From contig CAWGXH010000004.1 of assembly GCA_963826525.1 (NCBI GenBank), positions 1,280,001-1,344,000 of the forward strand: 64,000 nucleotides of DNA, in the 5' to 3' direction. The first letter of the stretch is position 1; every line of letters starts with the position of its first letter. A program made the translations under genes and the position numbers. The notes beneath the pieces were generated by a model. It made no database searches and was not told the DNA's origin. It saw only the letters and a list, made by a program, of their open reading frames with translations. Positions 3,971 to 21,751 of this stretch are shown in pieces. The stretch is from an uncultured Methanomicrobiaceae archaeon (GTDB lineage Archaea > Halobacteriota > Methanomicrobia > Methanomicrobiales > Methanoculleaceae).

Positions 3971-5116
3971 CTATGCTCTTCGCCGCTGCCCGTCCATACA
4001 GGCGTTCAGTACCTCGTCGAGGAACTCGAGCGTTCCCTCGACACCGGCGAGCGCCCGGGCGCGAAGGTGCACCCGCCCCCGCACCGGCGGTGTCAGGGGG
4101 ACGAAGGGAGTCTTCGGGATGACGCTCTGTTCGTAGGACGAACCGATGACGAGATCGGGCTCGCATGCCCTGAGCAGATCCGCTATCCGGGTGAAGTCGA
4201 CCGTCTCCTCGACCCGGAAGCGGGAGGGGGGGGCGTGGTTTCGGGAGCAGATGCAGGCTATCTCGGCGTCGAGATGCTGCTCGAGCGTCTCCGCGACGAA
4301 GACTGCATATGCCCCTCCTCCGAAGACTGCCGCCCGGGGAGGCTCGAAACGGCGCAGGTACTTGTCGCATGCCTTCGCGATCCGCGCCTCGGCGGAGGCG
4401 ATCTCCCGGTAGACCGGTGCGGGGTCGATAGTGTCACGGGTGTTCGCGAGTCTCTCGAATGTCTCCGCCACTGCATCGAGGCCGAGGAGGGAGCCGCACC
4501 ACTCTCCGACGCCGCTCGCGAGGTCGGGATTCGTGCCGACCGTGAACGGAGCCGCCCTATACGCCGCATCGAACCGGTCGCAAGCGAAGGTCGTGCCGAT
4601 GCCCGCGCCTGCCGCCGTGAGCAGGCGCCGGGCTTCCAGCATGTTCCCCCGGTGCAACGGATCGATAAGGCTGATCCCGTCGATGTTGATGCCCGGCATC
4701 TCGTCGTCGACCGCCGGCTGTATCCGTTCCAGCGCCGCGTGGTACCCGGCCTCGAGCGTGCCGAGGAATCCCGGACTGTCGACGAGGAGCAGGTCGTGAT
4801 CGTCGACCACACCGGCGAGGTCCTCCCCCATAATCGCGGGCACGCAGGTGGTGACAACGGCGATATGATCGTACCGTCCGGCAACCTCGCCGATCACCTC
4901 GCCGAGCCGCTCTTCCGTCCCGAAGATGATCTCGTTCTCGACGAGAAACGTCCCGTGGATGGGGGCGGCGACGAGGGAGGCCGGGTAGAAGTAGCAGCCG
5001 CTCGAACCGTGGACGATGACGGCGAGATCTTCGAACCCGGCGAGACACGCGACCGCTCCGGTCATGGCGCAAGGCCAGAGCGGGTTTGAGCAGTCCTGCT
5101 GTGCGGGTGGGTGCAT
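3971..5116 (-). CDS. Nitrogenase component-1-like oxidoreductase subunit (NifD/K fold, short form)
   Basis: NPLWPCAMTGA, HGSSGC, ENEIIFG, TTCVPAIMGEDL, DSPGFLG and DLVIGSSYE. Confidence 0.88.
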   Translation of the reverse strand: MHPPAQQDCSNPLWPCAMTGAVACLAGFEDLAVIVHGSSGCYFYPASLVAAPIHGTFLVENEIIFGTEERLGEVIGEVAGRYDHIAVVTTCVPAIMGEDLAGVVDDHDLLLVDSPGFLGTLEAGYHAALERIQPAVDDEMPGINIDGISLIDPLHRGNMLEARRLLTAAGAGIGTTFACDRFDAAYRAAPFTVGTNPDLASGVGEWCGSLLGLDAVAETFERLANTRDTIDPAPVYREIASAEARIAKACDKYLRRFEPPRAAVFGGGAYAVFVAETLEQHLDAEIACICSRNHAPPSRFRVEETVDFTRIADLLRACEPDLVIGSSYEQSVIPKTPFVPLTPPVRGRVHLRARALAGVEGTLEFLDEVLNACMDGQRRRA

Positions 5117-5215
5117 GGTCTGGCAAGATCATCGATGCGGCGGGATAAAAGGGTGGCGCAGGGGCGGGCACTTCGCCGCAGCCGATGTGAATTACGGGGT
5201 ATTCTCTTTTTATTC

Positions 5216-6503
5216 GTGAATATATGCTGTATTAAGGCTCAGAATTGTACTCTGCTCCTAGTCGCGCTCCTGCTTCTCGCGGGAGGGTTCGTCTCTTCCG
5301 CGTCTGCTGCCGGGACCGCCGACGTGACGATCGTCTCCTCTCCCGGTGGTGCCTCCGTCACGGTAGACGGCTCCTATGTCGGCATGACCTCGCGGGGTCG
5401 ACCCTTCCATTCTCCGTCACCGTGAACGCAGGAGCCCATACTGTGGCCGTAGCACTCACCGGGTACCAGCCCTCGGTTACCACCATCCAGGCGAAGCCGG
5501 GCGAGCTGCGGACGCTCTCGATGATCCTCGCCTCCTCCCCGGCGTCGGGTGCGGCATACGTCGCCTCGACGCCCGGGAGCGCGATGGCGTCGCTTGACGG
5601 CGGCGAGACACGGGCGACTCCCGCGAACTTCACCGTCGTGGCGCCCGGAACGCACTCGGTGAAGATCACGAAACCGGGTTTCGTTCCCTGGTCGAAGACG
5701 GTGACCGCCAATGCAATCCTGAACCCGGCGCCGGATACGGGAACGCTCTCGGTCATGTCAAACCCGTCCGGTGCCGATATCTATCTTGACGGGACGTACC
5801 TGGTTTATTCCCCGATCACCCTCGGGAACGTCGTCCAGGGCGGACACGAGCTCCGCCTGCAGCTCGCCGGGTACCAGACCTGGACGGGGACGGCATCGGT
5901 TGGAGGCGGGAAGACCGCTGCGGTGAGCGCAGTCCTCATCCCGACACCTGCCGGGACGTAGGTGACATCGCCGTGACGTCCACGCCCGCGGGAGCGGCGA
6001 TATATCTCGACAACACCTACCGGGGCACGACTGCCGCCGGGAACCCGATTGATATCACCGGGGTCTCTCCCGGTACGCACGCTGTCACGCTGACGCGTGC
6101 CCGGTATGCCGATTACGTCACCGGCGTTTCCGTCGCCCCGGGACAGACGGTGCGCATAGCCGCGGTGATGATGCCCGGTGCAGGCCCGGGTGAGAAAGGC
6201 TTGGTCGCGGTCTCTTCAAAACCCTCCAGTGCAGACATCTATCTCGACAACCAGTATCTCGGGATCACGCCGCTTACGCAGGCCGGCGTCGCGCCGGGTC
6301 AGCATGCGCTGCTTATGAAGGTGAACGGCTATACGGACTGGTCGGGAGATGTCCAGGTGGCGGCAGGGAAGACCACTGAGGTCACGGCAGGCATGATGGC
6401 GAAGCAGAGCGCGCCGGAGGCAGGGAGTGCTCCTGTCCTGCTGCCGGGTGCGCTCATGCTTGCCGCGGTGCTGTACCTCGCGTGCAGGATGAAACGAGAA
6501 TAA
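5216..6503 (+). CDS. Multi-PEGA-domain surface protein with signal peptide and C-terminal membrane anchor; frameshifts near 5390 and 5960; start approximate
   Basis: About five S(S/T/N/K)PxGA-IYLDG-G-TP repeats across ORFs 5111, 5245 and 5973; C-terminus PVLLPGALMLAAVLYLACRMKRE. Confidence 0.8.
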
Positions 6504-6530
6504 CTCCCCCCATTTTCTCTGACGGATGGT

Positions 6531-6986
6531 TTAGCGTTTCACGACCATGACCGGCTGATGAGCATTTTTGACGACATACTCGGAGACGGTGCCGAGCAGC
6601 CGGTCGCGGATGTTGCTCCTGCCGTGCGATCCTATGACGATGAGGGAGACGTTCTCCTCGTCAGCCGCTTTGACAATCGCCTTTCCCGGCTCGTCGATGG
6701 GTGTCCGGACATGCACTGCGAACCCCTCCCGCTCGAGCTGCCGGCGTGTGTCGATGATGTTGTTCTGGATATCCTCCCGTAACCGTCGCTGAACCTCGGT
6801 CTCGACGTCCGGCACCGAGCCGAGGAAACCCGCTCCACCCGATGCGATCAGGGTGATATCCTTCTGGTCGATGACATGCACCATCACGACTTCGAGGGTG
6901 CCGGCGGCCTTCAGATCCCGGATATAGTCCATTGCTTTCAATGAGGGCTCGGAGAAGTCGGTGGGGAACAAAATGCGCTGAAACAC
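6531..6986 (-). CDS. Universal stress protein (UspA family)
   Basis: ILFPTDFSEPS and LIVIGSHGRS...LLGTVSEYVVKNA. Confidence 0.92.
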   Translation of the reverse strand: MFQRILFPTDFSEPSLKAMDYIRDLKAAGTLEVVMVHVIDQKDITLIASGGAGFLGSVPDVETEVQRRLREDIQNNIIDTRRQLEREGFAVHVRTPIDEPGKAIVKAADEENVSLIVIGSHGRSNIRDRLLGTVSEYVVKNAHQPVMVVKR

Positions 6987-7069
6987 GGTTGGATCCTCCT
7001 CTGTGGATAACCAAACCTTTGTTCATCCTGTATATAAGAGTACGGTCGGGCCAGGCCGGGAACCGGCCT

Positions 7070-8143
7070 TTATCGGTGGCCGCCTGAACGGATTGCCCGT
7101 TGCCAGCGGTGCAGCATCCGGTGGATGCCTGCGGTTCCGACAGGAGCCGGGTAGGGGGCAGGGAGCGGTATCCCATCCTGCGTGAGGCGGAGATCGAGCG
7201 TTTCTACTAGTTCTGCGACGATCCCGCGCCCTTCCCCATCCTCTTCGAGCATTGGGGAGAACCGGTCGAACCTGATACGGGTTCCGGCGAGATCGGCGAA
7301 CTCTGCCAGAATCTCCTTCTGGTATGCAGCCTCCTCATGCACCGGATCACGGGAGTCCTGTCCGGTAAGTCTGCCCACCTCTTCGAGGAACCGGCGGGTT
7401 CCGGCGAGACCCGCCGGAAACGATTCGACGAAGGGTGTTCCGTGTCGGTGCATAAGTTCCTCCCCGACCGGCCGGAGAGCCGGTTCGCGGAGGATGTTGA
7501 GCGATCCCGCACCAAGCCGGGCGACATCGCGCGTAGCGATATCCCGGACGAACCGGAGGTTCACCGGAAGGTCGAAGTATGCAAGCAGACGCACCATCTC
7601 GGCGTAGTTTTCGTCGACATCCGATTCGAGGTTCTTTTCCCCGATGAGCGTCACCCCGGCGTCCTGTTGTGAGCAGGGTCCGGCAAGAGTCGCGGCGGCG
7701 AGCAGTGCATTCGAAACCCCCGTCTGGAAGATGCCGCCGAGGAATCCGGCCGTCCGGATGGGAACGACCGGCAGATCCCACTCGCGCGTGCAGACGCCGT
7801 AGACGTCGTCGCCGATGGTATCGACGATACAGGTGGAGAGGACGAAGAGCGACGCCGGGGATGGCAGAACCTCGTGAGCACGGCCGATGCACCGTTCAAG
7901 CGCATCTTCACCGCCGAAGATGATCTCGTTCTCGGAAAGCCCGGTCGAGAGGAGACGTGGGACGGCAACCGTATCGTTTCCGAGCAGCGTTGCATGGAGG
8001 AGGGAAAAATTGTGGTGGGTGCATCCGGCAGGGCCGTGGATGATGCAGACCGCGTCGCGTATCTCTGTCACCACGGCGAGAGCGCCGGTCAGGGTGCATC
8101 CCTCAAACCTGGACACATTCGAGGGCAAAGGCTTCGAGTTCAT
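7070..8143 (-). CDS. Nitrogenase component-1-like oxidoreductase subunit (NifD/E fold, short form)
   Basis: [41 protein letters not shown] and TAGFLGG; likely start MNSKP overlaps the end of the NifH-like gene. Confidence 0.88.
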
Positions 8144-8921
8144 CCATGTCGAAGGGAGTCGGAATGCTCGTCTGGGTGTTCTTGTAGATATCGTCGGCCA
8201 GCTGCCGGTAGACCTCTGCCTGGCCGGAATCCGGAGCATACTCGATGACCGTCTGCCTGTTCAGCTCGGCGAGCTGGACGATGCGGTCGCGCGGTATATA
8301 CGCTATCAGGGATGAGTTGATACGCCGGGCGAACTCCTCCACGAGGTCACGTTCCCCTTCGATGTTCTTCGCGTTGCAGATGACGCCGCCGAGCCTGCAG
8401 CCGTTTCTGACCCTCTTCGAGAGGCGGGCGATCGCTTTTGCGATGTTGTTTGCAGCGTAGATCGACATCAGCTCGCCGGAGGTGACGAGGTATACCTCCT
8501 CGGCGTAATTCTCCCGCATCGGCATGGCGAAACCGCCGCAGACGACGTCGCCGAGGACGTCATAGACGATCACGTCGCCGTTAAGAGCGCCGAGCCGTTC
8601 CAGAAGCTGGAAGGTTGCGATGATTCCACGTCCGGCACACCCGATCCCCGGTTCCGGACCCCCTGCCTCCACGCAGCGCACACCCGAGAAACCGGGATGG
8701 ACGACGTCGTCCACGGTGAGGTTTGCATCTCCCCGCTCACGGATAAGGTCGAGCACGGTCGGGATCCAGGTCCCGTGCATCAGCATCCTGGTGCTGTCGT
8801 GCTTCGGATCACAGCCGATCTGCAGGATCTCAAGGCCGCTTCTTGCCAGTGCTGCCGAAAGGTTAGCCGACGTCGTGGATTTGCCGATTCCACCTTTCCC
8901 GTAGAGGGCGATCTGTTTCAT
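8103..8921 (-). CDS. Nitrogenase iron-protein-like reductase (NifH/CfbC family, group IV-like)
   Basis: [35 protein letters not shown] and [12 protein letters not shown] with both [4Fe-4S] Cys. Confidence 0.93.
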
Positions 8922-9179
8922 CCTAGAACCTACCTTACGTTAGGCACGCTGTCCTCAAATAATTAATCTGGATTTTCGTAAAGACAAGTGGATGTGCGGG
9001 ACACCGGGTATACGGCATCTCCCGCCTTCCATTCCCCGGCGGGTGCCTATCAGGCGCCGCATGCTCGATCTCCGGGCGGTGCGGTTCCCGGCGGCTACCC
9101 GGGAACGGCGGGTCGGAGACGTTAGCCCGAGACCATCTCGCGCTTCTGCCGGTGCCGCGGAGCCGGCCGTCAAAACACA

Positions 9180-9320
9180 TCTTCTCAAATAAATAGTTTT
9201 GTCCTTTCTTAAATCCGGTCAGATGAACTCTTTTAGAGGATATGTCACGATGAGGATTCAGTTTAATATTCTGAGTCTTATAAATTGTTATTTATTATCC
9301 AGAAGGTATATAATTGGCGA
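9180..9320. promoter_or_regulatory. AT-rich divergent promoter region with TATA-like boxes
   Basis: Strongly AT-rich stretch (ttataaatt, tttattat, tataat) between the divergent NifH-like gene and the 9359 gene. Confidence 0.5.
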
Positions 9321-9358
9321 GTTGAAAACCTACGTACACCACAGGGGAGCTGACGTAT

Positions 9359-9988
9359 ATGGACCCACACTACCGTTCACGACTGATTGCCGTTGTCATC
9401 GCCATGATCGTTATCTGTTCGGCTTTTTCGGTCAGCCCGGTAGCTGGATTCCGACTGGAGAACAGGGATGGAAACGGCACCGGTGCAATACTTGCCGAAT
9501 CGCTGGTAATGCAGGAGAGCACCAAGCTTGAGGAAGAGTTTCTGGAAAACGTGACCGTCTACATCGACAGCCGGAGCGACAAGTTCGAGCCGTACCGAAA
9601 CTCCTCGCTCGAGGTTTTTGTGAACGGTGTCTATAGCCTTGAGGAGGATGCGATCTACCTGCGATCGGATCTGAATCCCGAGAGTGCGGACGAGACGCTC
9701 GTCCAGCAGATCGGATACCGGATCTACTACCGGAAGGGGCTTGAGAAGAGCGATCTTCTGCGGTCGCTCACACCGGCTCCCGGGTCTTACCTGAGCCGAA
9801 TCAGCACCCTGCCGGGCGAGGTCACCGGTGCGACCGTCTTTGCAAATGCCTTCATGCTCTACTACACATCCCCCGAGCTGCTCGAGACGGACAACCCCGG
9901 GCTCTACACCTATATCGACCTGCTCGTCGAGACAGGAGGGGATGCAGCGGTCGTCGACGACCTGTACCGCACCTCCGAGCCGGCGTGA
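9359..9988 (+). CDS. Secreted protein with a degenerate zincin (ATLF/Pro-Pro-endopeptidase-like) fold
   Basis: Signal peptide; GVY...IYL...TLVQQIGY in place of HExGH; VFANAFMLYYTSPELL...PGLYTYI; T-run at 10005-10014 after the stop. Confidence 0.6.
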   Translation: MDPHYRSRLIAVVIAMIVICSAFSVSPVAGFRLENRDGNGTGAILAESLVMQESTKLEEEFLENVTVYIDSRSDKFEPYRNSSLEVFVNGVYSLEEDAIYLRSDLNPESADETLVQQIGYRIYYRKGLEKSDLLRSLTPAPGSYLSRISTLPGEVTGATVFANAFMLYYTSPELLETDNPGLYTYIDLLVETGGDAAVVDDLYRTSEPA

Positions 9989-10579
9989 TCCGGCTTTTCT
10001 CACGTTTTTTTTTAGGCTCATTTCAGGGCGCTTCCCTTTCAGTCTTTTCGATCCGGACTCTTCAAACCCGCAGGGAAATCGATTTACGTACGATGATATG
10101 ATCCTGCGTTCCGGCGCAATGAACGCCGGGATGAACTGATGGGCTTCAACCCTGCATGGCGAGCGTTTTTCCGGCCGGAGCCGGTGATCAATGCCTCACC
10201 GGGTTCGTTTCGCGTCTCGATGCAGATTTCCGCTGGTAGGTCTACTGCGCTCCGGTGAGATGTGCGTGACTGTCCCCTGTTCCGGGAAGAATATTCGGCT
10301 TCATGATACGTGACGGCACGGGTGCTGGATTTTTCCATACGCTGATTTTTTCCAGCGCGATTGAGATATATGCTCGACCGTTCAAGGTTTCTCAAGGGCC
10401 TGATTGCCATGCGAGAGTTTGTGGTACTTCGGATGTGCGATTAATTCAGGGAAAAGCGAGTGCTGTTCATCCCACCCTGATAAGCCGGATGAGCATACTA
10501 TAGCTCGAAGGCAGATGTGTTTGCATTCTTCAACTTAAGAGTCTGCTCGTTTTTGCCTTCGGTTTGAAGGTGATTACCA

Positions 10580-13500
10580 ATGAGCACGAAACGTATAGAG
10601 AGAGTCATTCCTCTTCTCATGGCGGTGCTGATGATAACCACGGCGTTCATCCCCGCGGTGAGCGCTATGGCACCGCAGGCAACTGCATCGAGTATGGATG
10701 CCGGGGGGATACTCGGTGCCTGACATAACCCCTTCTGCCGCAGAGATGTCCGGAGCGGCATCCGGGACGGTATCGAACGGTCAAAGCGTTGCAAAAAATA
10801 AGAAGAACCAGTCGTCGTGGTCGGCAGAGAACTGGGCACAACCCATGTCTGGGACGAACGCCACCGGCTATGCCCCTTCGGGGATTGAGTCTGCCGCAGA
10901 ACCGGGTATAGATTCTCTAGGCGGCAGGAGTTGAACGCGTGGTCACCGGTTCCGGCAAGACCAAGATCAAGGTTCACGATCCGGAGACCAGAACCATCGG
11001 GATTCAGGACGAGAGCAGGTCTGGCGGCAACGGCGGCGACGATGAACTCGAGATCAGGCTGCTGAACGCCACCCCTGACCTCGGCACCTTCACGGAGATA
11101 TTCGAGGTAACCGCACACCGCATGATCGCACTCGACGAATCGGAAGACTTCCTGGCCACGAGAGCGCTCCATAACGGGAACGAGAACGTCACACGGGCTA
11201 CCAGTGGTTCGTCTGAGAGAACAGATCGCATACCGTCGAGATTCACATCATCGAATAACGAAATGTTACCCTGCGGCATACCGCTCTCCTGAGAATGAAC
11301 CCGAGGACGTCGATCCTGACGACACCTTCGGAGATATTACCCTCGCAGAGCGGCGACTCACAAGGCAAAGCCGGGCTGAAAGTACCTATGAAGAGATCTT
11401 AATGAAGGATAAAACTCTTGAGAGCGGTGTTCACGAGGAGATCGTCCCCGAGAGCGCTCCCCACCAGAACAGCACCCCGGAAAACAGCACTTCTGAGAAC
11501 GTTCCCATCGAAGACGTCATCCCTGACATCGATATCTCCGGAAACACCACTCCTGATGAGACAACTTCCAAAACCGTCACAATCAGAGAGCCCTATATCG
11601 CCGGCACCGAGACCAGGGAGGAATCCTGGCCGGAGTGGGTGGCGTTCGACCCGGCAGGGCGGACGGCTCAATGTCGGTGAGACCTATCAGTTCAAGGTAA
11701 TCTACAAAGAATACGCCGAGATAGGACAGTTCGATATCAAGACGGCGCCGGTCATCGAGGCGTCGCATGCCCGGAGATGACCTGGTGGACTACCGCCTGG
11801 GCATACTGGGTGCCGATCACGATCATCAGCCCGCCCTCAATCGATGGCTACTCGCACTGTGAGAACGTCTCATTCCGCGACGGGATGCAGAGCGACTTCG
11901 ATGACGTCCGGTTCGCAACCGACGACGGCACCGTCCTCGACTACTGGAAAGAGTCCTATACGGCATCCGGTTCGGCGGCCATCTGGGTCGGCCTTCCCGC
12001 CGGTACGACCTCGATCTGGATGTACTACGGGAACGCGAGCTGCCACCGATATCGGCGACATGAACAGTGTCTTCACCCTCTACGATGGCTTCGACGGGCC
12101 GTCTCTCGACACCACTCTGTGGCATGAATCGCCTTATCCTGGGGTGAATTACTTCTCCAAAGGCTGGATATACAATGCCCAGTCTCATAATGCACTACGA
12201 ACTAGAATACTCGGAATAGTGTGATTCACGAGCGGCGAACCGCTGATCGTGGCGATGCACATCCATGTCGATAGTCTGCCTCGGTCTCCCACCATCAGCT
12301 GTGGGTGTTTCCCCTATTCCTTGGCGGCATTTACAACGGCATGTCTTGGTGCTGGGAGGGGCCGTACAGACCGGCGTGTCCGCGTGAATGGTGTGTCATC
12401 ATGGCGACCGGGAACATCAGCGTGGTCTCGAGGTTGGGGGTGACTACTACAGCACTTGGATCATCACTCCCTCCACTCAAACTCACACTGTCAGCGGAAG
12501 CGCCACATACACCGATGTTTTCGCTGGCACTACCGGGATATCAAACCATCAAATGTTCCTCCTAGGCGGTGACAACTACATTCCCGGTCGAGTAATACGG
12601 ATGGACTGGGTCAGGGTCCGGAAATACGTCGAGACCGAACCGGTGTTCACGTATGGAACACCGCAGGAATCACCCGTCGTGACGACGATCTCTGTCACTC
12701 CGTCGGATGTGGATCTAGCGGTGGGCGAGACCTGTCAGTTCACTGCTACTGCTTATGACGATGCTGGTAACGTGGTGGACATCACCTTCACCTGGGAGAG
12801 CAGCAACGAGACGGTCGGCACCGTGACCGAAGACGGTGTCTTTTCAGCAAATTACGACGGGACAACCGAAATATCTGCATCTGCAGGTTCGATAACCGTA
12901 ACCGCGCAGGTGACCGTCATCCCTGTCAGTGACGTACGGATCGGCATGGAACTGCTCTGCCGACGGCTGGTATCAGGCTGGTCGTCTACCGCATCGTGGA
13001 CATGCCCTAACGGCGCCTGCGCCGAATATGGCCCCGTCATGGTCGACGGTCACGGAGAACACGGTGCGGACGTCCATCTCTCGGCGGGTGCGGTGATAGC
13101 AAGTGTCGAGCACAACTTTACTGATCCCTCCGGTGTCGGGTGGGACGGCTTGGCGCTCGTCGCGCGCGTGGGGGGAAGCAGCGTCCCCTCCGGGCGGTGG
13201 ATGACCATCGAGGTGAACGGCGAGCTTGTTTACTCGGAGTCCGGTTTCTCCAGCCTCCGATCCTGACAATGCGATCCCCAGGATGTTCCAGGCCGACTTC
13301 CCGCAATCCGACACCGTGCGGATAAGATATCTCCCATGGGCAGAACCCGATGTGGAGCACTCACGTCCCGATGGACTACTATTCGCTCGAATTGCATCCG
13401 TCTACTCCCCCCATCGCCATCACCTCTCCGCGTGACGATACGGTGCCGTCCGGCGAGAACGTCACCGTGGCCGGGAACGTCTCCGATACGAGCATTACCA

Positions 13501-16500
13501 ACCTCACGCTCACTCACAACGGCGTGAATTCGACCCTCACGGTGCAGAACGGGATACTTTTCGGCCAAGGTGACCCTTGCGGATGCGAATACGATCACGG
13601 TCAGCGGCACCGACTCGTGGGGCAACCCGATCTCGAAGACGCTCCTGCTGGACGGCGATATGCTGCCAGCCGACTTCGAAGAGTCGATCGGGTTCGATCC
13701 GCTCGACGCTGATTCCGACTGGACCCAGTGGTATGGAAACCAGGCAGACAACGGGATCATCGACGGTTACGAGCACTCCTTCAACGGGCTGCCGGTCTTT
13801 GTGAAGTACCGGATCGGCGCCGATCCGTTCGCGTTTGATAGTGACGGCGATTGGCTCCTCGACGACTTCGAGCTGATGCACCTCGCCCTCACCACCAGTG
13901 TCTGCTCGTCTGATTCCGATGGCAACGGTATACTGGATAGGGACGAGGACCCGGATGATGATGGTCTTTCGAATTATGAGGAACAGACCTACGGGACCGA
14001 ACCGCTGATGGCCGATACCGACGACGACGCTCTTCCCGACCGGGAGGAGATCTCGCTGGGAACCGATCCCTGCAACGCAGATACCGACGGCGACGGCATT
14101 CTCGACGGCTATGAGGTGACACTCGGAACCGGCCTTCTGAACAACGATACGGCCGTCCTCGGCACACTAGACGGTGAGGAGGATTACTGGAGCACCGGGC
14201 ATTATATCAACGAAACGCTGAACCTGACGGTCCACGGCCGGGGCTACGCGATCGCCAACGCCAGTGTTCCCAGGTTAACTTCACCAATCTTATGCGAGAG
14301 GATGTCCTCGTCAGCAAGGTCTACGATATCGGGTTCGGCGATGGTATCGACCACGGAACGGTAACGATCAAGTATAACAGCACGTTCGTTGAAGATAACG
14401 AAACCCTGTCGGTATACCGGTTCGACGAAGATTTCGGGACGTTTTTGCCGATCAATTCGACGGTCGACGAAACACAGGGGGTCGTGACCTGCGCCGTGAC
14501 CAACTCCTCGATGTACGCCGTGCTGGATTCGGTGAAGTGGGACTCCCTTTTCGTCAACTGGCCGGGCATGTCGTCCAGTGAGGTGTCGGCACTAGGTGAG
14601 GGATGGCAGGCTGTTGCAAACGGAGATTTCTCGGAGGGGCAGACCGGTTGGGTGCCGTCCGGTCAGTATTTCTACAATCAAGCGAACTATGGAATGATAG
14701 TTGAGCCCTATTATCACTCGGGGTACGAACCTTCTCCGCCATCTTTGAGAATTTCGATCTGGAATAAAAGGCCTGAGGATTTTACAGAATGCATAGTAAT
14801 GCACCCCAATGTTGATCTGACAGATGTCGATTCCCTTACATTCAGACTACAGGTGCATTGAAAGCCATCAGAGTGGGGGCATCGCCTCGTCCGGGTTACG
14901 ATACTGGATCGATGGGGTATCCACTGCGGGATCGCCGAGTTTCAGGGATGACGGTAGTGGCCTGGTCTGGGTGGATAAGGAATGGCAGACGGCAACTATC
15001 GATGTGAGTGACGTCAAGGGTGTAAGATCTCTATATTTCAAAGTCTCGATGAACAGGGACATGGGAATAATCGAGTATAACGAAGCAGACCTGACATATC
15101 TCATTGACGATGTTACTGCCTGGTCGAAGACGGAGCCACACAGCCCGATACCGCCATCGTGCGGCTCCATGTCGAAGATATCGCAGTCGCATGCAGGCGT
15201 GCCCAACGCAAAAATCACCCTTTCCGATAGTGGGAAATATGTGTATACCGATGCATACGGAAATGCCTATGATTTTCTCTTTAAAGGCCCTTTAGTGACT
15301 CTATCTCCTACCGTATCGAAGCGGAAGGCTACAACAATCATGACGGATACATACGAATCGATCCCGATGATTTCGGCACAAACCGTACCGATAAAGCAGT
15401 CATCAACGATGGTCTCACGGGTTCGATCGAGGTAACCTACACTCAATCGCAGGTATTCATCTACGTTGACGATATGTACTATCAGGGCCACTGGAAACAC
15501 TGCTTATATTTTCGATCTCTGTGCAGAACCAGGATACAAATTCGCATATCGTTAGATTTGAAAAGGTGAGTTGGAGTCCCCAAAAACAGATGTTTGGTAC
15601 CTGCCGGTGGTCAGCCGCACGTTTCCTTTAACCTGATGGATGCAACGGGGGCAATCGAGGTCACCTCCACGCCGCCGGGTGCCGCCGTGTACCTCGATCA
15701 GGTGTATAGAAACACCACGTCAGAGGGTTCCGGACTCCTCACGATATCGAATGTCAACTCCGGCCAGCACCGGATCGACGTTCAAAAGGACGGCTATGCT
15801 CCGTTCTGGACGACGGTAACGGTGGCCGATGGTCAGACTGCTCAGGTGGAGGCGGACCTCGACAACACGACGAAGAGGAGGACGGCATACTGGATTACTA
15901 CGAGAGGAACGGGTTCGTCGACGGCTTCGGCAATCGGCACGTAACCAATCCCGACTCGGTCGACACCGACGGCGACGGGCTCTCGGACGGATACGAGGTG
16001 ACGGAACTCGTCCATCTGGGTGGGAATCTCTTCTTCTTCAAGTCCAGGAGCGACCTGACGAAAGTAGACAGCGATGACGATGGGATTAATGATCCCGACG
16101 AGCCCGAGTTCTTGACGCAGCCGATGAGACGCGATACCGATTCGGATAGGATCCTCGATAGGTGCGAGCTCCTGCTCGGGACCGATCCGATCAACCGTGA
16201 CACGGACTATGACGGGAATGATGACTATCTCGAGTTACAGTTTGACTATCCCTACGGTCCGCTGGTTCATGCCGACAGGAGTTACATTGAAAACGCCATT
16301 GCTCTTGCCGACGGTTTTGCCTCCGGCGAGAGGGGCGCAGACCGTTGCGACAACCTGTACGACCTTGCCGGGTGGATGTTAAGTGGTGTTGTCCTTGCAG
16401 GAGATATCCGTGATATAGGCGGGTCGATAGTGCGCGGCGACGGGATGGGAACGCTGGCGAATGCCTTTGCTCAGATCCCGGCAATAGGAGATGCTGAAAG

Positions 16501-17345
16501 GGCGGTTATATAAGGAGCCAAATATTTGAAACGATCACGAGAAGAATCGAGGTAGCGCAACGTTTGTTCCGAGGTATATCGCCTCGTCCATCGATTCGGT
16601 TAAGAAGATCATCGGTTAATACGTCATCGACGGGTTGAGGGCAAAAGGGTTTAAGGATGATGCAAGCGTACGCTTACTAAACAGGGGATCAAATCTAAAT
16701 TGCTCGACGAAGCGCTGGACAATGCCGTCGTCAACGGCCAGAGCATCTACGTGCGGTACCCGGGTCTCAAGAATTTCTTTAGCGATAAGAATGACCCTGG
16801 AGGGCTCTGGTCTTCAAGGAACAGGGGACGTTCAACACACTGAATATCGTTCGCGCCGGAAACTGGACAGTCGGTCCTTCGGTATACGAACAATCTCCAG
16901 GGAGCCTATTCCGAGTTCTGCGCGAAAGGCTGGACATCGGCGGCGATGCGGGTACGCGACCTGAGCGACATCAACACGGGCGGCGTCGACTACGCCGCGC
17001 TGGTGGATGGCGGAAACACCCTGAAGATCGTGGAGGTCAAAGCTCGGCAGAGACTGGAGCGAGCGGATCTTAGGAATTACATAAAATTCGATCGAACAGT
17101 ACAATCCCGAGTCTTTCAACGTGGACTACGTGATTCTGAGCCTCGGAGAGGACTTCTTCAAGGAGCAGTCGACCGTCAGCAAGGAATTCGTGCTGTATAT
17201 CAACAGCCCCGAGAGCACGGCGATCAGGAGTCACCTGAACTTTGATCCCGACCTGTGTTTATGGTATGAATTTACAGGTAAGGACGGTACAAAACATTCG
17301 GGAACCGTAAAAATTACGGTGACGGCGGTGAAAAAACAGGTGAAG
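10580..17345 (+). CDS. Giant secreted multidomain protein, candidate polymorphic toxin (about 2200 aa if repaired; many frameshifts)
   Basis: RBS gaaggtga + ATG 10580; signal MSTKRIERVIPLLMAVLMITTAFIPAVSA; DUF2341-like DFDDVRF...LDYW...WMYYGN (11780-12130); Big_2 Ig (12670-12930); DxDxDG Ca repeats (13650-14190, 15860-16230); PEGA (15640-15860); pre-toxin-TG-like (16360-16500); GVD...IVEVK nuclease (16870-17340). Confidence 0.72.
13650..14190 (+). repeat. Asp-rich Dx[D/N]xDG calcium-binding repeats (TSP3-like), first block
   Basis: DSDGDWLLD, DSDGNGILD, DPDDDGLSN, DTDDDALPD, DTDGDGILDG with GTDP spacers. Confidence 0.8.
15860..16230 (+). repeat. Asp-rich DxDxDG calcium-binding repeats, second block
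   Basis: DTDGDGLSDGYE, DSDDDGIND, DTDSDRILD and DTDYDGNDD across shifted frames. Confidence 0.75.
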
Positions 17346-17348
17346 AGC

Positions 17349-18539
17349 ATGGCGGGTAATGCATTTCAAAAGTATTTATTTGAGGAGCGGGAACGATGCG
17401 AGTCGCTCCTGAAGGGATTGGGAGCGGTACGATAGGTTGCCGGAAAAACTCGACTCAGAGCCGATCATATGCTATGAGAAACTCGGATCCATCTATCTGT
17501 ATTCCGGAGAGACCGACCTTGCCGGAAGGATGTTCTCCAACCTCTCCCTTTTCGGCACGGCCATCAGAAAATCCCGGTTCGACATCAAAGGGTTCAAAGA
17601 AGAAGATAAAGCCAAACCGGATCTTCTCGTGATGATAGCAAAGGGAGATATAGAGAATGCGATTTATCTCCTTCTTGCAGGGAAGAACCCGGATCAGGTT
17701 CATCGACTCGTTACGTGGGCGGCGGAGAACACCGATCTTCCACCCGACTACGTCAGGGGGCGACTGGGGGTTCAGGACTATAGCGAAGTCGCCGTCGGGT
17801 ACCTCTGGCACGGCTACGCCCTGATCTGCCTCGGGCGGTACGGGGAGGCGCTTCCGCTGCTCACGGGAGGTGACCCCGCTCTTCGTCCAGGAGCGGAAGA
17901 GCGGCGTCGAGGTCTGGCAGAAGGTCGAGTATGCCCTCCCGAAGGCGCTCGTACCCCTCTGCGAGTTCGAGCTCGATCCCACCGCCGACCGCCTGAAAGC
18001 GGCGCAGGAGGGGATCGAGACCTACCTCAAAAGCCTGAAGATGTACCGCGATCGTCTCAGCGGCCTCCTCTACTATTTCCACCTCAAGAAGCAGTTCGCC
18101 GACGTCTACGAAGCCGATCCGGCATCGTTCGTCCCACCATCCGCAAACGGTAGCGGAAAAGCCGGCTATGGCCTCGCAACCGGTCACCGGCCGGGAGAAG
18201 GACCCCGAAGGTATGATCGTCATGGGACTGACCCAGTTGGATCCGCCGAAGGTCTGGACGCTGGGATCGTTTGGGTGCTACGCGGATTTCGAGGCGTTCA
18301 CTGCGTACGTCCGCTCTCTCGGCGGGTATCCTGCGCTCGCGGCACTGATGGACACCTATACCCTCGAAGAGCAGCAGGAGGCCGCGCCGTTTATCGAGGA
18401 GTGCGAACGGCTTCTCCAGCTCCGGGATCTCGATCCGAGGGTTCGTGCCGTTGCGGAGGAGATCCTTTCGGCTCTGCAGACCGCGGTGCAGGAAGGTGCA
18501 ATACCGGACGATCTGGTGGTGGAGATCTACCAGGGGTAA
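17349..18539 (+). CDS. Candidate immunity protein (alpha-helical, TPR-like); frameshifts near 17430, 17866 and 18165
   Basis: RBS aggtga + ATG 17349 directly after the nuclease tip; WHGYALICLGRYGEALPLL TPR-like helix; no signal peptide. Confidence 0.55.
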
Positions 18540-18687
18540 GGGCTGCTGTGAGGGATCGGTTCCAATCCCTTCAGGGCACGGTGCTATCCTGAATTACCTA
18601 TCGGCCGGATGCACCCACTTTTTCTGAGAGACGCCGACGGCAATCCCGATAGCAAAAAGCGGTGCGCCCCGGCTGGCCCCGCCCCCC

Positions 18688-20146
18688 TCAGTCGAACCGC
18701 TTGAATATCCCGAGGAAGAGCATGATCACCGGGATGATCTCAAGACGCCCGATCCACATGATCATGATGAAGAGCACCTTTGCCGAGGCGGACATATCGG
18801 GGGAGACGAACCCGGTGCTGATCCCGTTGTTGCACATCGCCGACACGACCTCGAAGATGACATTGCTCGACTCGAACCCGGTCGGCTGCAGGTGCATCGC
18901 GAGGACGGTGGCGATGAAGATGATCAGGAAATAGAGCATGATCACCAGCATGTTCCGGGAGACCTCGAGGTCGGCGATATTCTTCGGGATGACCTTCCCC
19001 TCGTACTTGAACGGAACGAGCACCTTCCCCGAGACGAGCATCCTCCGGAACCACCACAAAAGACTCTGTGTACCGAGGACGACGCGGGAGAGCTTGATAC
19101 CTCCGGCAGTGCTCCCGGACGCTCCACCGATCACCATCAGCATCGAGAGGAAGAGCACCGTGACGCTCGCCCATTCGTTCGGCGAGCTCGATCTGAAAGC
19201 CGGTGCTGGTGGCGGCCGCGATCGACATGAAGAGCGCCTGCCGGATCGCCGTCGGCGTATCGGCGAAGGAGAGGGTGACGAGGTCCCAGGCGATGACCAC
19301 GATACCGACCGCGATGAGGATGAAGAGCAGCCGTGCCTGTGAATCGCCGAAGAACTTCACTCCTTTCTTGTTGTACATGTAGTAGTACAGTTTGAACGGC
19401 AGGGCGCCGGCGATCATGACGGGTATGATGAGGATCTCAAGAAGCGGGTTGTCGTAGTAGGGAATTCCTGCCGCATGGACGGAGAACCCGCCGGTGGAGA
19501 TCCCGACGAGTGCGATATTGATTGCGTCCCAGACCGGTATCCCGGAGAGGAGGATCATCCCGACCGAGGCGGCCGTCAGGACGAGATAGATCTTCCACAT
19601 CTCAAGCCCTGTTGCCACCACGCTCGGCATCAGCGCCTCGCTCCGCCCCTCCGACCGGTAGAGCCGGAACTGCGTCAGGCCCGTCCTGCTCGCCATGGCG
19701 ATGGTGAATGCGACGATCCCGATACCGCCGAGCCACTGCATGAGCGACCGCCAGAAGAGCAGCGTCTTTGGTAGTGTGTCGATATCGGGGGCAAGCGTCA
19801 GGCCGGTATCCGTCCACCCCGACATCGCTTCAAAGACGCTGTCGAGGTAGGGCATCCCTATCCCGAGCGTGAACGGGAGCGCCCCCACGATAGCACAGAT
19901 CAGCCAGATGATGGCGACCGCCATGAGGGCTGCGGAGAGAGGCGGTTCCCGCTCCCGGTGCGGAACCCGCGTGAGCAGCGTGCCGAGGAGAAAGAGGGTG
20001 ATCGGAACCGATGCCATCGGGAGCAGCATATTCCACTCCTGGTAGATCAGCGTGATAAGGAGCGGCACCGCTGTACCGATGCTGATAAATCTGAAGATAT
20101 TGCCGATATCGGGTGCGATGATGGAGAACTGCTCGACCCTGTCCAT
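18688..20146 (-). CDS. trkH: TrkH-family potassium uptake protein, frameshift near 19190
   Basis: FEAMSGWTDTG, WRSLMQWLGGIG, ISTGGF, GGASGSTAGGIK and MWIGRLEI. Confidence 0.92.
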
Positions 20147-20268: not shown

Positions 20269-21240
20269 TCAGGTGCGATCGGGCGTTGCCTCGATGAAGA
20301 TTCTGCGATTGATGATCTGCCAGGCGAGGATGAGCTGGACCACCTCACCCGCCGTCAGGTAGGAATCGTCGACGGCGAACTTAATGGGGTGAATCTCGGT
20401 CTGATCCTCGATGTTCTCCTCAAGTTTCCCGATGACATCGGCGTTTACCTCTCCGTCGAGGGTGAGCGCCCCCATAGGCCGGCCGTAGATATCGTCGACG
20501 GAGTATTCGAGGAGGAAGTTCCTCTCCGAGAGCGAGAGGAGCGAGAAGAGATCAATCGAGAGATCGATCTCCCTGATGCTCCGATCAAGCCTGCTCTGGC
20601 AGAGTGAAACCTGGTAGACGTTCCGCTCTTCGCTCACCGCCCGTCCGTACTTCGAGTATGAGATCCTGATGATCGCATCGGCAAACCCGCACTGCGGGGC
20701 AACATACCGCTCGTAATCGGGTTTGCGCCGGATCATCTCCTGAACGACTGCCTCCGGCCGGTAACCCCGCCGATCGACATCGCGTTGTATCTTCCAGGCA
20801 CGTTTGACCTCGGGGTCGGGATCGACGTAGAGTTTGAAGTCGATGAGCTCCCGGAGGCGGGGCGTGAAGAAGGGATGCAGTCCTTCGAGGATGACGATCT
20901 TGCTCGGCGAGAAGGGAACGGGGTCTTCGAAGGTGCCTTTGTCGTGATTGTACACCGGCTTTTCGATGGTTTCTCCTGCTTTCAGTGCCGCTACGTGCTC
21001 TTCAAGGAGTTTGAATCTGTTCGCTTCCGGGACGAGTGGCGTGATCCCGAGTTCTGCCCGTTCCTGCCGGTCGAGCGAGTGGTAGTCGTCGAGCGTGATG
21101 GTGGATACGAGATCCTCGCCGAATATCTGCCGTATCGTCCGGGTGAAGGTCGTTTTTCCGGAACCGCTGTCTCCTGCGACCCCGATGATATAGATATATG
21201 GAGACTCTGCGATGATATCCCTGAAGTTCGCGGGCTGCAT
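20269..21240 (-). CDS. prk: Archaeal phosphoribulokinase (PRK/uridine kinase family)
   Basis: IGVAGDSGSGKTTF, LDDYHSLDR, KPVYNH, LEGLHP, WKIQRDVDRRGY and YVAPQ. Confidence 0.8.
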   Translation of the reverse strand: MQPANFRDIIAESPYIYIIGVAGDSGSGKTTFTRTIRQIFGEDLVSTITLDDYHSLDRQERAELGITPLVPEANRFKLLEEHVAALKAGETIEKPVYNHDKGTFEDPVPFSPSKIVILEGLHPFFTPRLRELIDFKLYVDPDPEVKRAWKIQRDVDRRGYRPEAVVQEMIRRKPDYERYVAPQCGFADAIIRISYSKYGRAVSEERNVYQVSLCQSRLDRSIREIDLSIDLFSLLSLSERNFLLEYSVDDIYGRPMGALTLDGEVNADVIGKLEENIEDQTEIHPIKFAVDDSYLTAGEVVQLILAWQIINRRIFIEATPDRT

Positions 21241-21349: not shown

Positions 21350-21751
21350 TTACTGCTTGTTCGTCCAGAGCTGGTGAATATTGCAGTAGATCCGCGCTTT
21401 TACGTTCGTATCGTCGATCCAGGGAAATGTCGCCTCGGGAGGCCCTGTCGGGTCGAGTTTCTGGATAAAGAGGTATGGGCCTTTCCTGACCTCGACCCAC
21501 TCGATGTGGTGTTCGGGTATCATGGGATGGGGCGTCGAGCCGATCTTCACCCGGATGCCCTGGTCGGCCTTCTCGATCACCGGCACGTGCTTCTCCGTAA
21601 GCCCTTCCTCACGCATCTTCTCCGGGAGGTGCTGCCACTCGCAGGTTGTCTCGCCGGTGCAGATCGTATCCTCGGGGCTGTTTCCGGAATGCGATACCTT
21701 CACCACGTCTCCCGTGGACGGGCACTTGTATAACTCCAGCAATCTGCTCAT
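21350..21751 (-). CDS. Superoxide reductase / desulfoferrodoxin
   Basis: EKHVP, HPMIPEHHIEWVE and YCNIHQLW catalytic-site motifs. Confidence 0.9.
   Translation of the reverse strand: MSRLLELYKCPSTGDVVKVSHSGNSPEDTICTGETTCEWQHLPEKMREEGLTEKHVPVIEKADQGIRVKIGSTPHPMIPEHHIEWVEVRKGPYLFIQKLDPTGPPEATFPWIDDTNVKARIYCNIHQLWTNKQ

Follow-up and report, generated by a model that had tools for sequence, protein, structure and literature searches.

Among nitrogenase-like (NFL) systems, CfbCD of coenzyme F430 synthesis has been called the simplest, in a 2026 review that describes most NFL clades as uncharacterised (PMC13474568). Its catalytic component CfbD is described as a single homomeric subunit (PMC13474568, PMC12176620). 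Alpha-like NFL proteins fused to a NifH domain and followed by a beta-like gene have been reported from Archaea, Firmicutes and Deltaproteobacteria (Dos Santos et al. 2012, PMC3464626). For Group VI NFL proteins the review gives at most four of six Cys (PMC13474568). A pair with fewer conserved Cys, Mlab_1040/1039, which may or may not be orthologous to the genes described here, is mentioned for Methanocorpusculum labreanum (PMC3464626). Here we analyse a three-gene NFL locus, H-D1-D2, from an uncultured Methanomicrobiaceae archaeon of the order Methanomicrobiales. It lies in a stretch of 64,000 nucleotides, hereafter the window (assembly GCA_963826525.1, contig CAWGXH010000004.1, positions 1,280,001 to 1,344,000 of the forward strand), and coordinates are those of the window unless a contig is named.

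The locus (3971-8921) consists of three genes on the minus strand: H (8103..8921), a NifH-family iron protein of the CfbC type with 272 aa; D1 (7070..8143), an alpha-like (NifE/NifD-like) PF00148 subunit of 357 aa; and D2 (3971..5116), a beta-like (NifN/NifK-like) PF00148 subunit of 381 aa. The initial annotation had described a NifH-like gene overlapping a component-1 gene of about 357 aa, with a second one of about 381 aa 2 kb downstream, and this is confirmed by the open reading frames (ORFs) and by Pfam (Fer4_NifH 366.5 bits for H; Oxidored_nitro 153.9 and 159.1 bits for D1 and D2), along with NCBIfam for H and alignments for D1 and D2. The longest PF00148 ORF at D1 has 389 aa (7070..8239, minus strand), while the start common to 22 aligned relatives (MNSKP) is at 8143 and gives the 357 aa used here. 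From that start D1 overlaps H by 41 nt, and D2 starts 1.95 kb downstream of the D1 end on the same strand. We lean towards reading D1D2 as an order-specific alpha-beta NFL catalytic component driven by H, which would also serve CfbD; that H serves both partners, the type of cluster and the class of substrate are what we infer from the comparisons below.

Relationships, cysteines and fold of D1 and D2

Judged by curated profiles, D1 and D2 are neither Nif nor CfbD. On the CfbD model (TIGR03282, methanogenesis marker 13) they reach 52.3 and 48.7 bits against a cut-off of 268.4, and on the Nif equivalogs at most 95.7 bits against cut-offs above 320: the NifDK, VnfDK and AnfDK models give 72-88 bits (cut-offs 486-874), the NifE model 95.7 bits for D1 (505.1) and the NifN model 25-28 bits (326.8). 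The BchN and BchB equivalogs, at 35-38 bits, also lie far under their cut-offs of 324-490. When the proteins were compared with solved structures, the top match of D1 was NifE (the N-half of the fused NifEN 9i0g, E 6.4e-25), followed by NifD, with the MarD chain of the PDB weaker at 1.2e-14; that of D2 was the NifN half of 9i0g (9.4e-13), followed by NifK. The ranking of the NCBIfam models agrees, with NifE for D1 and NifN for D2. Profile comparison by hhalign shows D1 and D2 to be paralogues, with 28% identity across 234 columns at E 4.9e-25, and aligns only 111 columns with CfbD. The pair shares with the CfbD of this genome (354 aa) its short length and the lack of M-cluster ligands, and differs from it in having two paralogous subunits instead of a single homomeric one. 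Comparison with a genome of the same genus gave dN/dS values of 0.049 for H, 0.271 for D1 and 0.157 for D2. A protein-atlas search returned 'nitrogenase component 1' clusters only, and in the literature we found no paper describing an H-D1-D2 operon and none pairing CfbC with Methanomicrobiales.

Two trees were built for D1 without named references of NFL Groups IV-A, IV-C to IV-F and VI, a FastTree of 138 rows and a quick IQ-TREE of 56 rows, and they agree on its position. The D1 orthologues form one clade (SH-aLRT 100), which lies inside a 31-row clade (98% SH-aLRT) together with 11 proteins that carry an N-terminal NifH domain (H-fused) and unfused alpha-like relatives; the NifD/NifE clade is excluded from it (99% SH-aLRT), and in the subsets scanned the relatives in it all stay below the curated NCBIfam cut-offs. 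D2 falls among the beta-type proteins. Closest to D1 in these trees are H-fused NFL proteins, all of them uncharacterised, from which the present system differs in that H is a separate gene overlapping D1 and also a candidate CfbC, and in that the D1 clade is shorter and, in the genomes searched, restricted to one archaeal order. Six metagenome proteins came up in a homologue search that started from P0151, which is sister to the D1 clade. In the search for relatives, a locus of a Nitrospinae metagenome-assembled genome (P0156) holds an alpha-beta pair with no adjacent NifH and with uninformative neighbours, and the other 79 loci are distant (23-30% identity). At one locus from another family of the phylum (L146, G171:C6:45500-56000, about 4828-6785), a NifH-like gene 55% identical to H adjoins a PF00148 gene with 26% identity to D1 over 287 aa and 24% to D2; the latter is a further uncharacterised NFL type.

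The three N-terminal cluster Cys that had been noticed in each protein are carried by the motifs EGC16, HGPAGC41 and STC105 in D1 and WPC16, HGSSGC41 and TTC91 in D2. All are conserved and align with the P-cluster Cys of nitrogenase: C16, C41 and C105 of D1 with NifD C62, C88 and C154 (RGC, HGPxGC and STC, in the genome's own NifD and NifE), and C16, C41 and C91 of D2 with NifK C70, C95 and C153 (in its own NifK and NifN). The six P-cluster positions of the NifDK/MarDK type (alpha 62, 88, 154; beta 70, 95, 153) are therefore all kept, against the four at most described for Group VI. In 18 of 18 orthologues from six families, C16, C41 and C105 of D1 are retained along with C9, C16, C41 and C91 of D2. 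When the D1 alignment is widened to 23 rows, C41 and C105 do not vary and C16 hardly does; D1 C118 is invariant among the 18 orthologues and not among the 23 rows.

In the CfbD of this genome PRPSS replaces the first Cys, whereas D1 and D2 have three Cys each and the PRPSS motif is found in neither. The [4Fe-4S] cluster of dark-operative protochlorophyllide oxidoreductase (DPOR) is held by three Cys and one Asp, in contrast to the three plus three Cys of D1D2. Of the three interface Cys, all of which D2 retains, NifN of the same genome has two. No FeMo-cofactor ligand (Cys275, His442) was found in D1 by alignment, since Arg stands in the Cys275 column of NifD and the His442 segment is missing with most of domain III; D2 is likewise without them. 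The initial annotation was thus right that both these ligands and the N-terminal motif of CfbD are absent. Compared with NifDK and MarDK, each subunit is about 100-150 residues shorter, the shortened domain III leaves no room for an M-cluster-like cofactor, and no nifB or marB lies beside the pair.

Both subunits are modelled with confidence by AlphaFold2 (pLDDT 86.1 for D1 and 91.8 for D2). In Foldseek searches, NifD, MarD, NifE and BchB were the top matches of D1 (TMq 0.63-0.74), and VnfK, NifN, NifK and BchB those of D2 (TMq about 0.8). The predicted D1-D2 complex scores 0.79, against 0.00 for the best of three controls, with at least 84% of contacts agreeing between runs and a partner pLDDT of 89. 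Of 80 solved complexes, 58 attain the mark used for this score, as do 2 of 110 mismatched pairs, counts that are rough here because we used our own alignments; NifDK-type complexes have already been solved, so that the pass perhaps reflects a resemblance to these and shows likeness, not binding. The confident part of the predicted interface takes in D1 residues 15-16, 37-44 and 104-106 and D2 residues 6-16, 37-40 and 91-92, and with them all the conserved Cys. By modelling, D1 and D2 are accordingly a predicted heteromer whose six Cys meet at the interface; the fold is that of NifDK and MarDK.

The iron protein and the cfb and nif genes of the genome

H scores 420.8 bits on the NCBIfam model F430_CfbC (NF033200), passing the curated cut-off of 402, at a level like that of the CfbC-type proteins of other methanogen families (403-429 bits); the true NifH of the same genome reaches 382 bits and stays below. 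On the nifH model, H has 395 bits against a cut-off of 394.35. The P-loop (GKGGIGKS) and both cluster Cys (CAGRG, VCGGF) are present. Two NifH-family genes were found in the genome, the true nifH and H, and H is the sole CfbC candidate found in this 87.6%-complete genome. Across a sample of 121 Methanomicrobiales genomes, 104 of them high-quality (the order sample), exactly one NifH-family match at E<=1e-60 was present in 77, as counted by hand from the table.

Because H passes the CfbC cut-off and is the only non-Nif NifH homologue found, it is most likely the iron protein of F430 synthesis, used by D1D2 as well, rather than a component of a third, self-contained system. One ATP-driven electron donor would then probably serve two different enzymes, CfbD and D1D2. 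The proposal in the initial annotation of a minimal heteromeric system that is neither Nif nor Cfb holds for D1D2, a distinct alpha/beta pair that is a predicted heteromer and falls under the Nif and CfbD cut-offs; it is not supported for the system as a whole, given the standing of H. As for the separate cfbCD pair that it had raised, a separate cfbD with cfbE and cfbB was found, and no separate cfbC.

The source assembly (16 contigs, 87.6% complete, 5.3% contamination) has its true nif cluster, nifH-(D)-K-E-N, at C4:158.9-166.3 kb, on the same contig as the window and 1.1 Mb away. The true cfbD (499.9 bits) is on another contig (C3:405601-406647), flanked by cfbE- and cfbB-like genes, with no cfbC in the cluster. 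In seven of nine loci from other methanogen families cfbD stands directly upstream of cfbC; H is not linked to cfbD in this way, and no genome of the order sample has the two genes side by side. A distance of 11-14 kb separates cfbD from H-D1-D2 in several genera of a single family (for example G029, G096, G035, G023, G115, G005, G111), and elsewhere cfbD lies hundreds of kb from H or on another contig. The nifD (C4:163013-164639), cfbE-like (C3:404400-405582) and cfbB-like (C3:406650-408024) genes each switch to a second frame part-way along; given the completeness and contamination of the assembly, these shifts look like assembly indel errors, not pseudogenes. H, D1 and D2 are free of them.

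Occurrence, loss and surroundings of the operon

Within the order sample, D1 was detected at E<=1e-20 in 119 of 121 genomes (103 of the 104 high-quality ones), and in 117 at better than 1e-60 as read from the table; D2 was detected at E<=1e-20 in 118 (103 high-quality). At E<=1e-60, CfbC-type H is present in 119 genomes (105 above the cut-off; 103 high-quality) and cfbD, in single copy, in 114 (102 high-quality). In a second sample of 251 genomes from the phylum, D1 occurred in 36 of 37 Methanomicrobiales besides the window's own genome, and no orthologue was found among the 213 other genomes, where no match was better than 1e-27. H-D1-D2 is near-universal in the sampled Methanomicrobiales, and D1D2 is confined to this order within the genomes sampled.

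All 14 loci fetched from other genera have H, D1 and D2 side by side on one strand, each gene abutting or overlapping the next. Three loci were fetched from this genus and a Methanoculleus-like sister genus, and in all three D2 is split off and a universal stress protein (USP) gene stands beside D1 (L056, L057) or D2 (L058), an adjacency limited to this family. One genome departs from the order-wide pattern. G053, a 99%-complete genome that stands alone in its genus, encodes H (406 bits), and its sole PF00148 gene is cfbD (494 bits). At its locus L059 (G053:C13:21000-36000, 6215-7720) the TrkH-H arrangement is kept and D1D2 is cleanly deleted: the gene right after H shows 38% identity (E 1.5e-29) to the gene past D2 in a sister genus. 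The pair has therefore gone cleanly and H has stayed, which fits an essential role of its own for H, as CfbC, and an accessory role for D1D2.

In the window, the space between D1 and D2 holds the USP gene (6531..6986, minus strand, 83 nt past D1; Pfam Usp 102 bits) and, on the plus strand, two PEGA-domain surface-protein genes (5245-5961 and 5973-6503; Pfam PEGA 110.3 and 97.7 bits). Since none of the 14 loci from other genera has such a gap, the PEGA pair (5245-6503) looks like an insertion that parted D2 from H-D1 in this lineage. Upstream of H, an AT-rich, TATA-like stretch (8955..8970, minus strand), about 35-50 nt from the start codon, is from sequence reading a possible archaeal promoter of H-D1, or of H-D1-USP. 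GC content is about 0.6, and Methanoculleus and Methanoregula are the sources of the publicly named homologues. One block, some 10 kb in length (9000-18700), has a lower GC of 0.53-0.57 and surface-protein-like ORFs, namely DUF2341 (11777-12127), Big_2 (12388-13266), TSP3 (13570-14364) and PEGA (15594-15944). It parts H from TrkH (18740-20146), PRK (20269-21240) and desulfoferrodoxin (21350-21751), which are direct flanks of H in several other families, and like the PEGA pair it has the look of an insertion.

Elsewhere the flanks vary and include TrkH, PRK, an ABC exporter, a PF02579 protein and NikR/CbiM; the ABC exporter gene lies near the operon in single families and is convergent. In one genus (L045, 7319-8478) NikR and a CbiM/PDGLE Ni/Co-transporter gene are convergent to D2, and in another family a PF02579 (NifX/NafY-like) gene is (L044, 7374-7982; L048, 3343-3918). 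Two negative observations of the initial annotation held up. GGAA-N6-TTCC occurs in the window solely at 171 and 61856, with 1.08 chance matches expected, and an NrpR operator upstream of the locus was rejected on this ground; nif accessory genes were not found among the ORFs scanned at 1-30 kb.

Possible functions of the D1D2 pair

In the mechanism that we propose, a dimer of H would bind MgATP and dock on a (D1D2)2 core, and low-potential electrons would pass from H to an Fe-S cluster at the D1-D2 interface, held by six Cys to which each subunit would contribute three; the further invariant Cys9 of D2 would lie nearby. As ligands for an M- or L-type cofactor are missing, reduction of the substrate would proceed directly from the interface cluster, as in DPOR, chlorophyllide oxidoreductase (COR) and CfbCD. 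With DPOR and COR (BchLNB, BchXYZ) the system shares an iron protein with an N/B-type pair, and there an organic substrate, a tetrapyrrole, is reduced directly from such a cluster; BchB and BchN are among the top fold matches of D1 and D2. As possible substrates the initial annotation had named a tetrapyrrole, a sulfur compound or a metal chelate. Our best guess is a tetrapyrrole or another cofactor-type organic molecule, because F430 synthesis appears to use the same iron protein and the architecture is a minimal one. CfbCD too belongs to methanogens, and H passes the curated model of its iron protein as the sole candidate found.

Several observations weigh against this reading. The identity of H to nine high-scoring CfbC-type genes of other families, of which seven are linked to cfbD, is 45-50%, against 53% to the NifH of its own genome. 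In a quick maximum-likelihood tree it groups with NifH and the fused-H domains, apart from the cfbD-linked CfbC, with a split at 98% SH-aLRT, so that H may not be orthologous to canonical CfbC. With the assembly 87.6% complete, a second cfbC could be unassembled. From G053, which keeps H and cfbD without D1D2, it follows that, in that lineage at least, methanogenesis can do without the pair and H is independent of it. The loci scanned show no conserved functional neighbour, and their varying flanks give no clue to a substrate. The six Cys are no proof of an 8Fe cluster. Finally, the sequencing runs comprise three DNA metagenome runs of one study and no RNA run.

In a bolder version, which we regard as rather unlikely, the iron protein of an unrelated NFL operon would have taken the place of an ancestral cfbD-linked cfbC in Methanomicrobiales, and would now drive both homomeric CfbD and a heteromeric 'P-cluster-only' D1D2 (8Fe-type, six plus one Cys, no M-cluster) reducing an order-specific tetrapyrrole or cofactor precursor. 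The displacement is a lead and not a result, because in the approximately unbiased test a clade of H with CfbC is not rejected (p 0.152, delta lnL 16.9). If it were true, direct reduction at an 8Fe-type P-cluster-only site would be a catalytic mode undescribed for any NFL enzyme.

Four other explanations each seem weaker to us than a catalytic D1D2 driven by H. One, quite unlikely in our view, makes D1D2 a NifEN-like scaffold or maturase that works with H to assemble or carry a complex Fe-S cluster, such as one of the L-cluster type ([8Fe-9S-C]) for the methyl-coenzyme M reductase activation complex, and that is no substrate reductase. Like NifEN, D1D2 is an alpha-beta pair apparently served by a NifH-type protein, with a cluster expected at the subunit interface, and NifE and NifN are its top sequence matches. 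L-cluster-like clusters and an essential NifB have been reported in methanogens (PMC12176620, PMC13474568), and in the one family represented by L044 and L048 a gene of the NifX/NafY-type cofactor-binding family PF02579 adjoins D2. That gene, however, is convergent and not co-oriented, and D1 has Arg in place of the Cys that holds the L-cluster in NifE (the NifD Cys275 position), has lost most of domain III and lies outside the NifD/NifE clade. D2, with three interface Cys, is also unlike the NifN of its genome, G053 lives without the pair, and many of the 213 phylum genomes in which no orthologue was found are methanogens with the same need.

A low probability also attaches to the idea that the F430 pathway has in D1D2 another catalytic component, a heteromeric one, either a CfbD isoenzyme or a modifier or repair enzyme of F430, using the same CfbC. 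Its place in one operon with the only CfbC-type gene would agree with this, as would the NikR and CbiM-type Ni/Co transporter genes beside D2 in L045 and the short distance between cfbD and H in some genera. Both subunits are nevertheless far from CfbD in profile score and in alignable columns, CfbD itself is kept as a single copy in 114 of the 121 genomes, and G053 has cfbD and H in the absence of the pair. To our knowledge no modified F430 has come from Methanomicrobiales.

Sulfur acquisition offers a further possibility, which we consider very improbable: D1D2 would cleave C-S or similar bonds reductively, as methylthio-alkane or isethionate reductase does. The six P-cluster-type Cys are those of MarDK, MarD structures (9fmg_A, 9d9u_A) rank among the top fold matches of D1 (TMq 0.67-0.72), and other Group IV NFL systems have been tied to sulfur metabolism (PMC13753814, PMC13474568). 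Yet D1 is without an equivalent of the Cys275 cofactor ligand, the flanks scanned contain no NifB/MarB-type gene, no sulfur-metabolism gene stands beside the operon in the loci scanned, and D1 groups with the H-fused alpha-like proteins, albeit in a tree without a named Mar reference. Hardest to credit is that D1 and D2 are decaying relics next to an H functional as CfbC: the parting of D2 from H-D1 in this lineage, the loss in G053 and the dN/dS of 0.27 for D1, highest of the three genes, would allow it, but the frames are intact and full-length, the ligand Cys are retained in 18 of 18 orthologues from six families, dN/dS is well under 1 and both models fold confidently.

D1D2 is an uncharacterised variant of a known enzyme superfamily, in a field whose main gap, according to the 2026 review (PMC13474568), is that the functions of most nitrogenase-like clades are unknown. 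It is an NFL pair kept by almost all sampled genomes of a major methanogen order, and its operon ties it to the iron protein on which F430 synthesis most likely depends. If a single Fe protein does serve two partners, as our reading of D1D2 as a catalytic component driven by H would have it, the system would be a natural model for partner specificity in the superfamily, with the D1D2-less lineage of G053 as a ready-made comparison. If true, this reading would add an ATP-driven reduction to the cofactor metabolism of methanogens.

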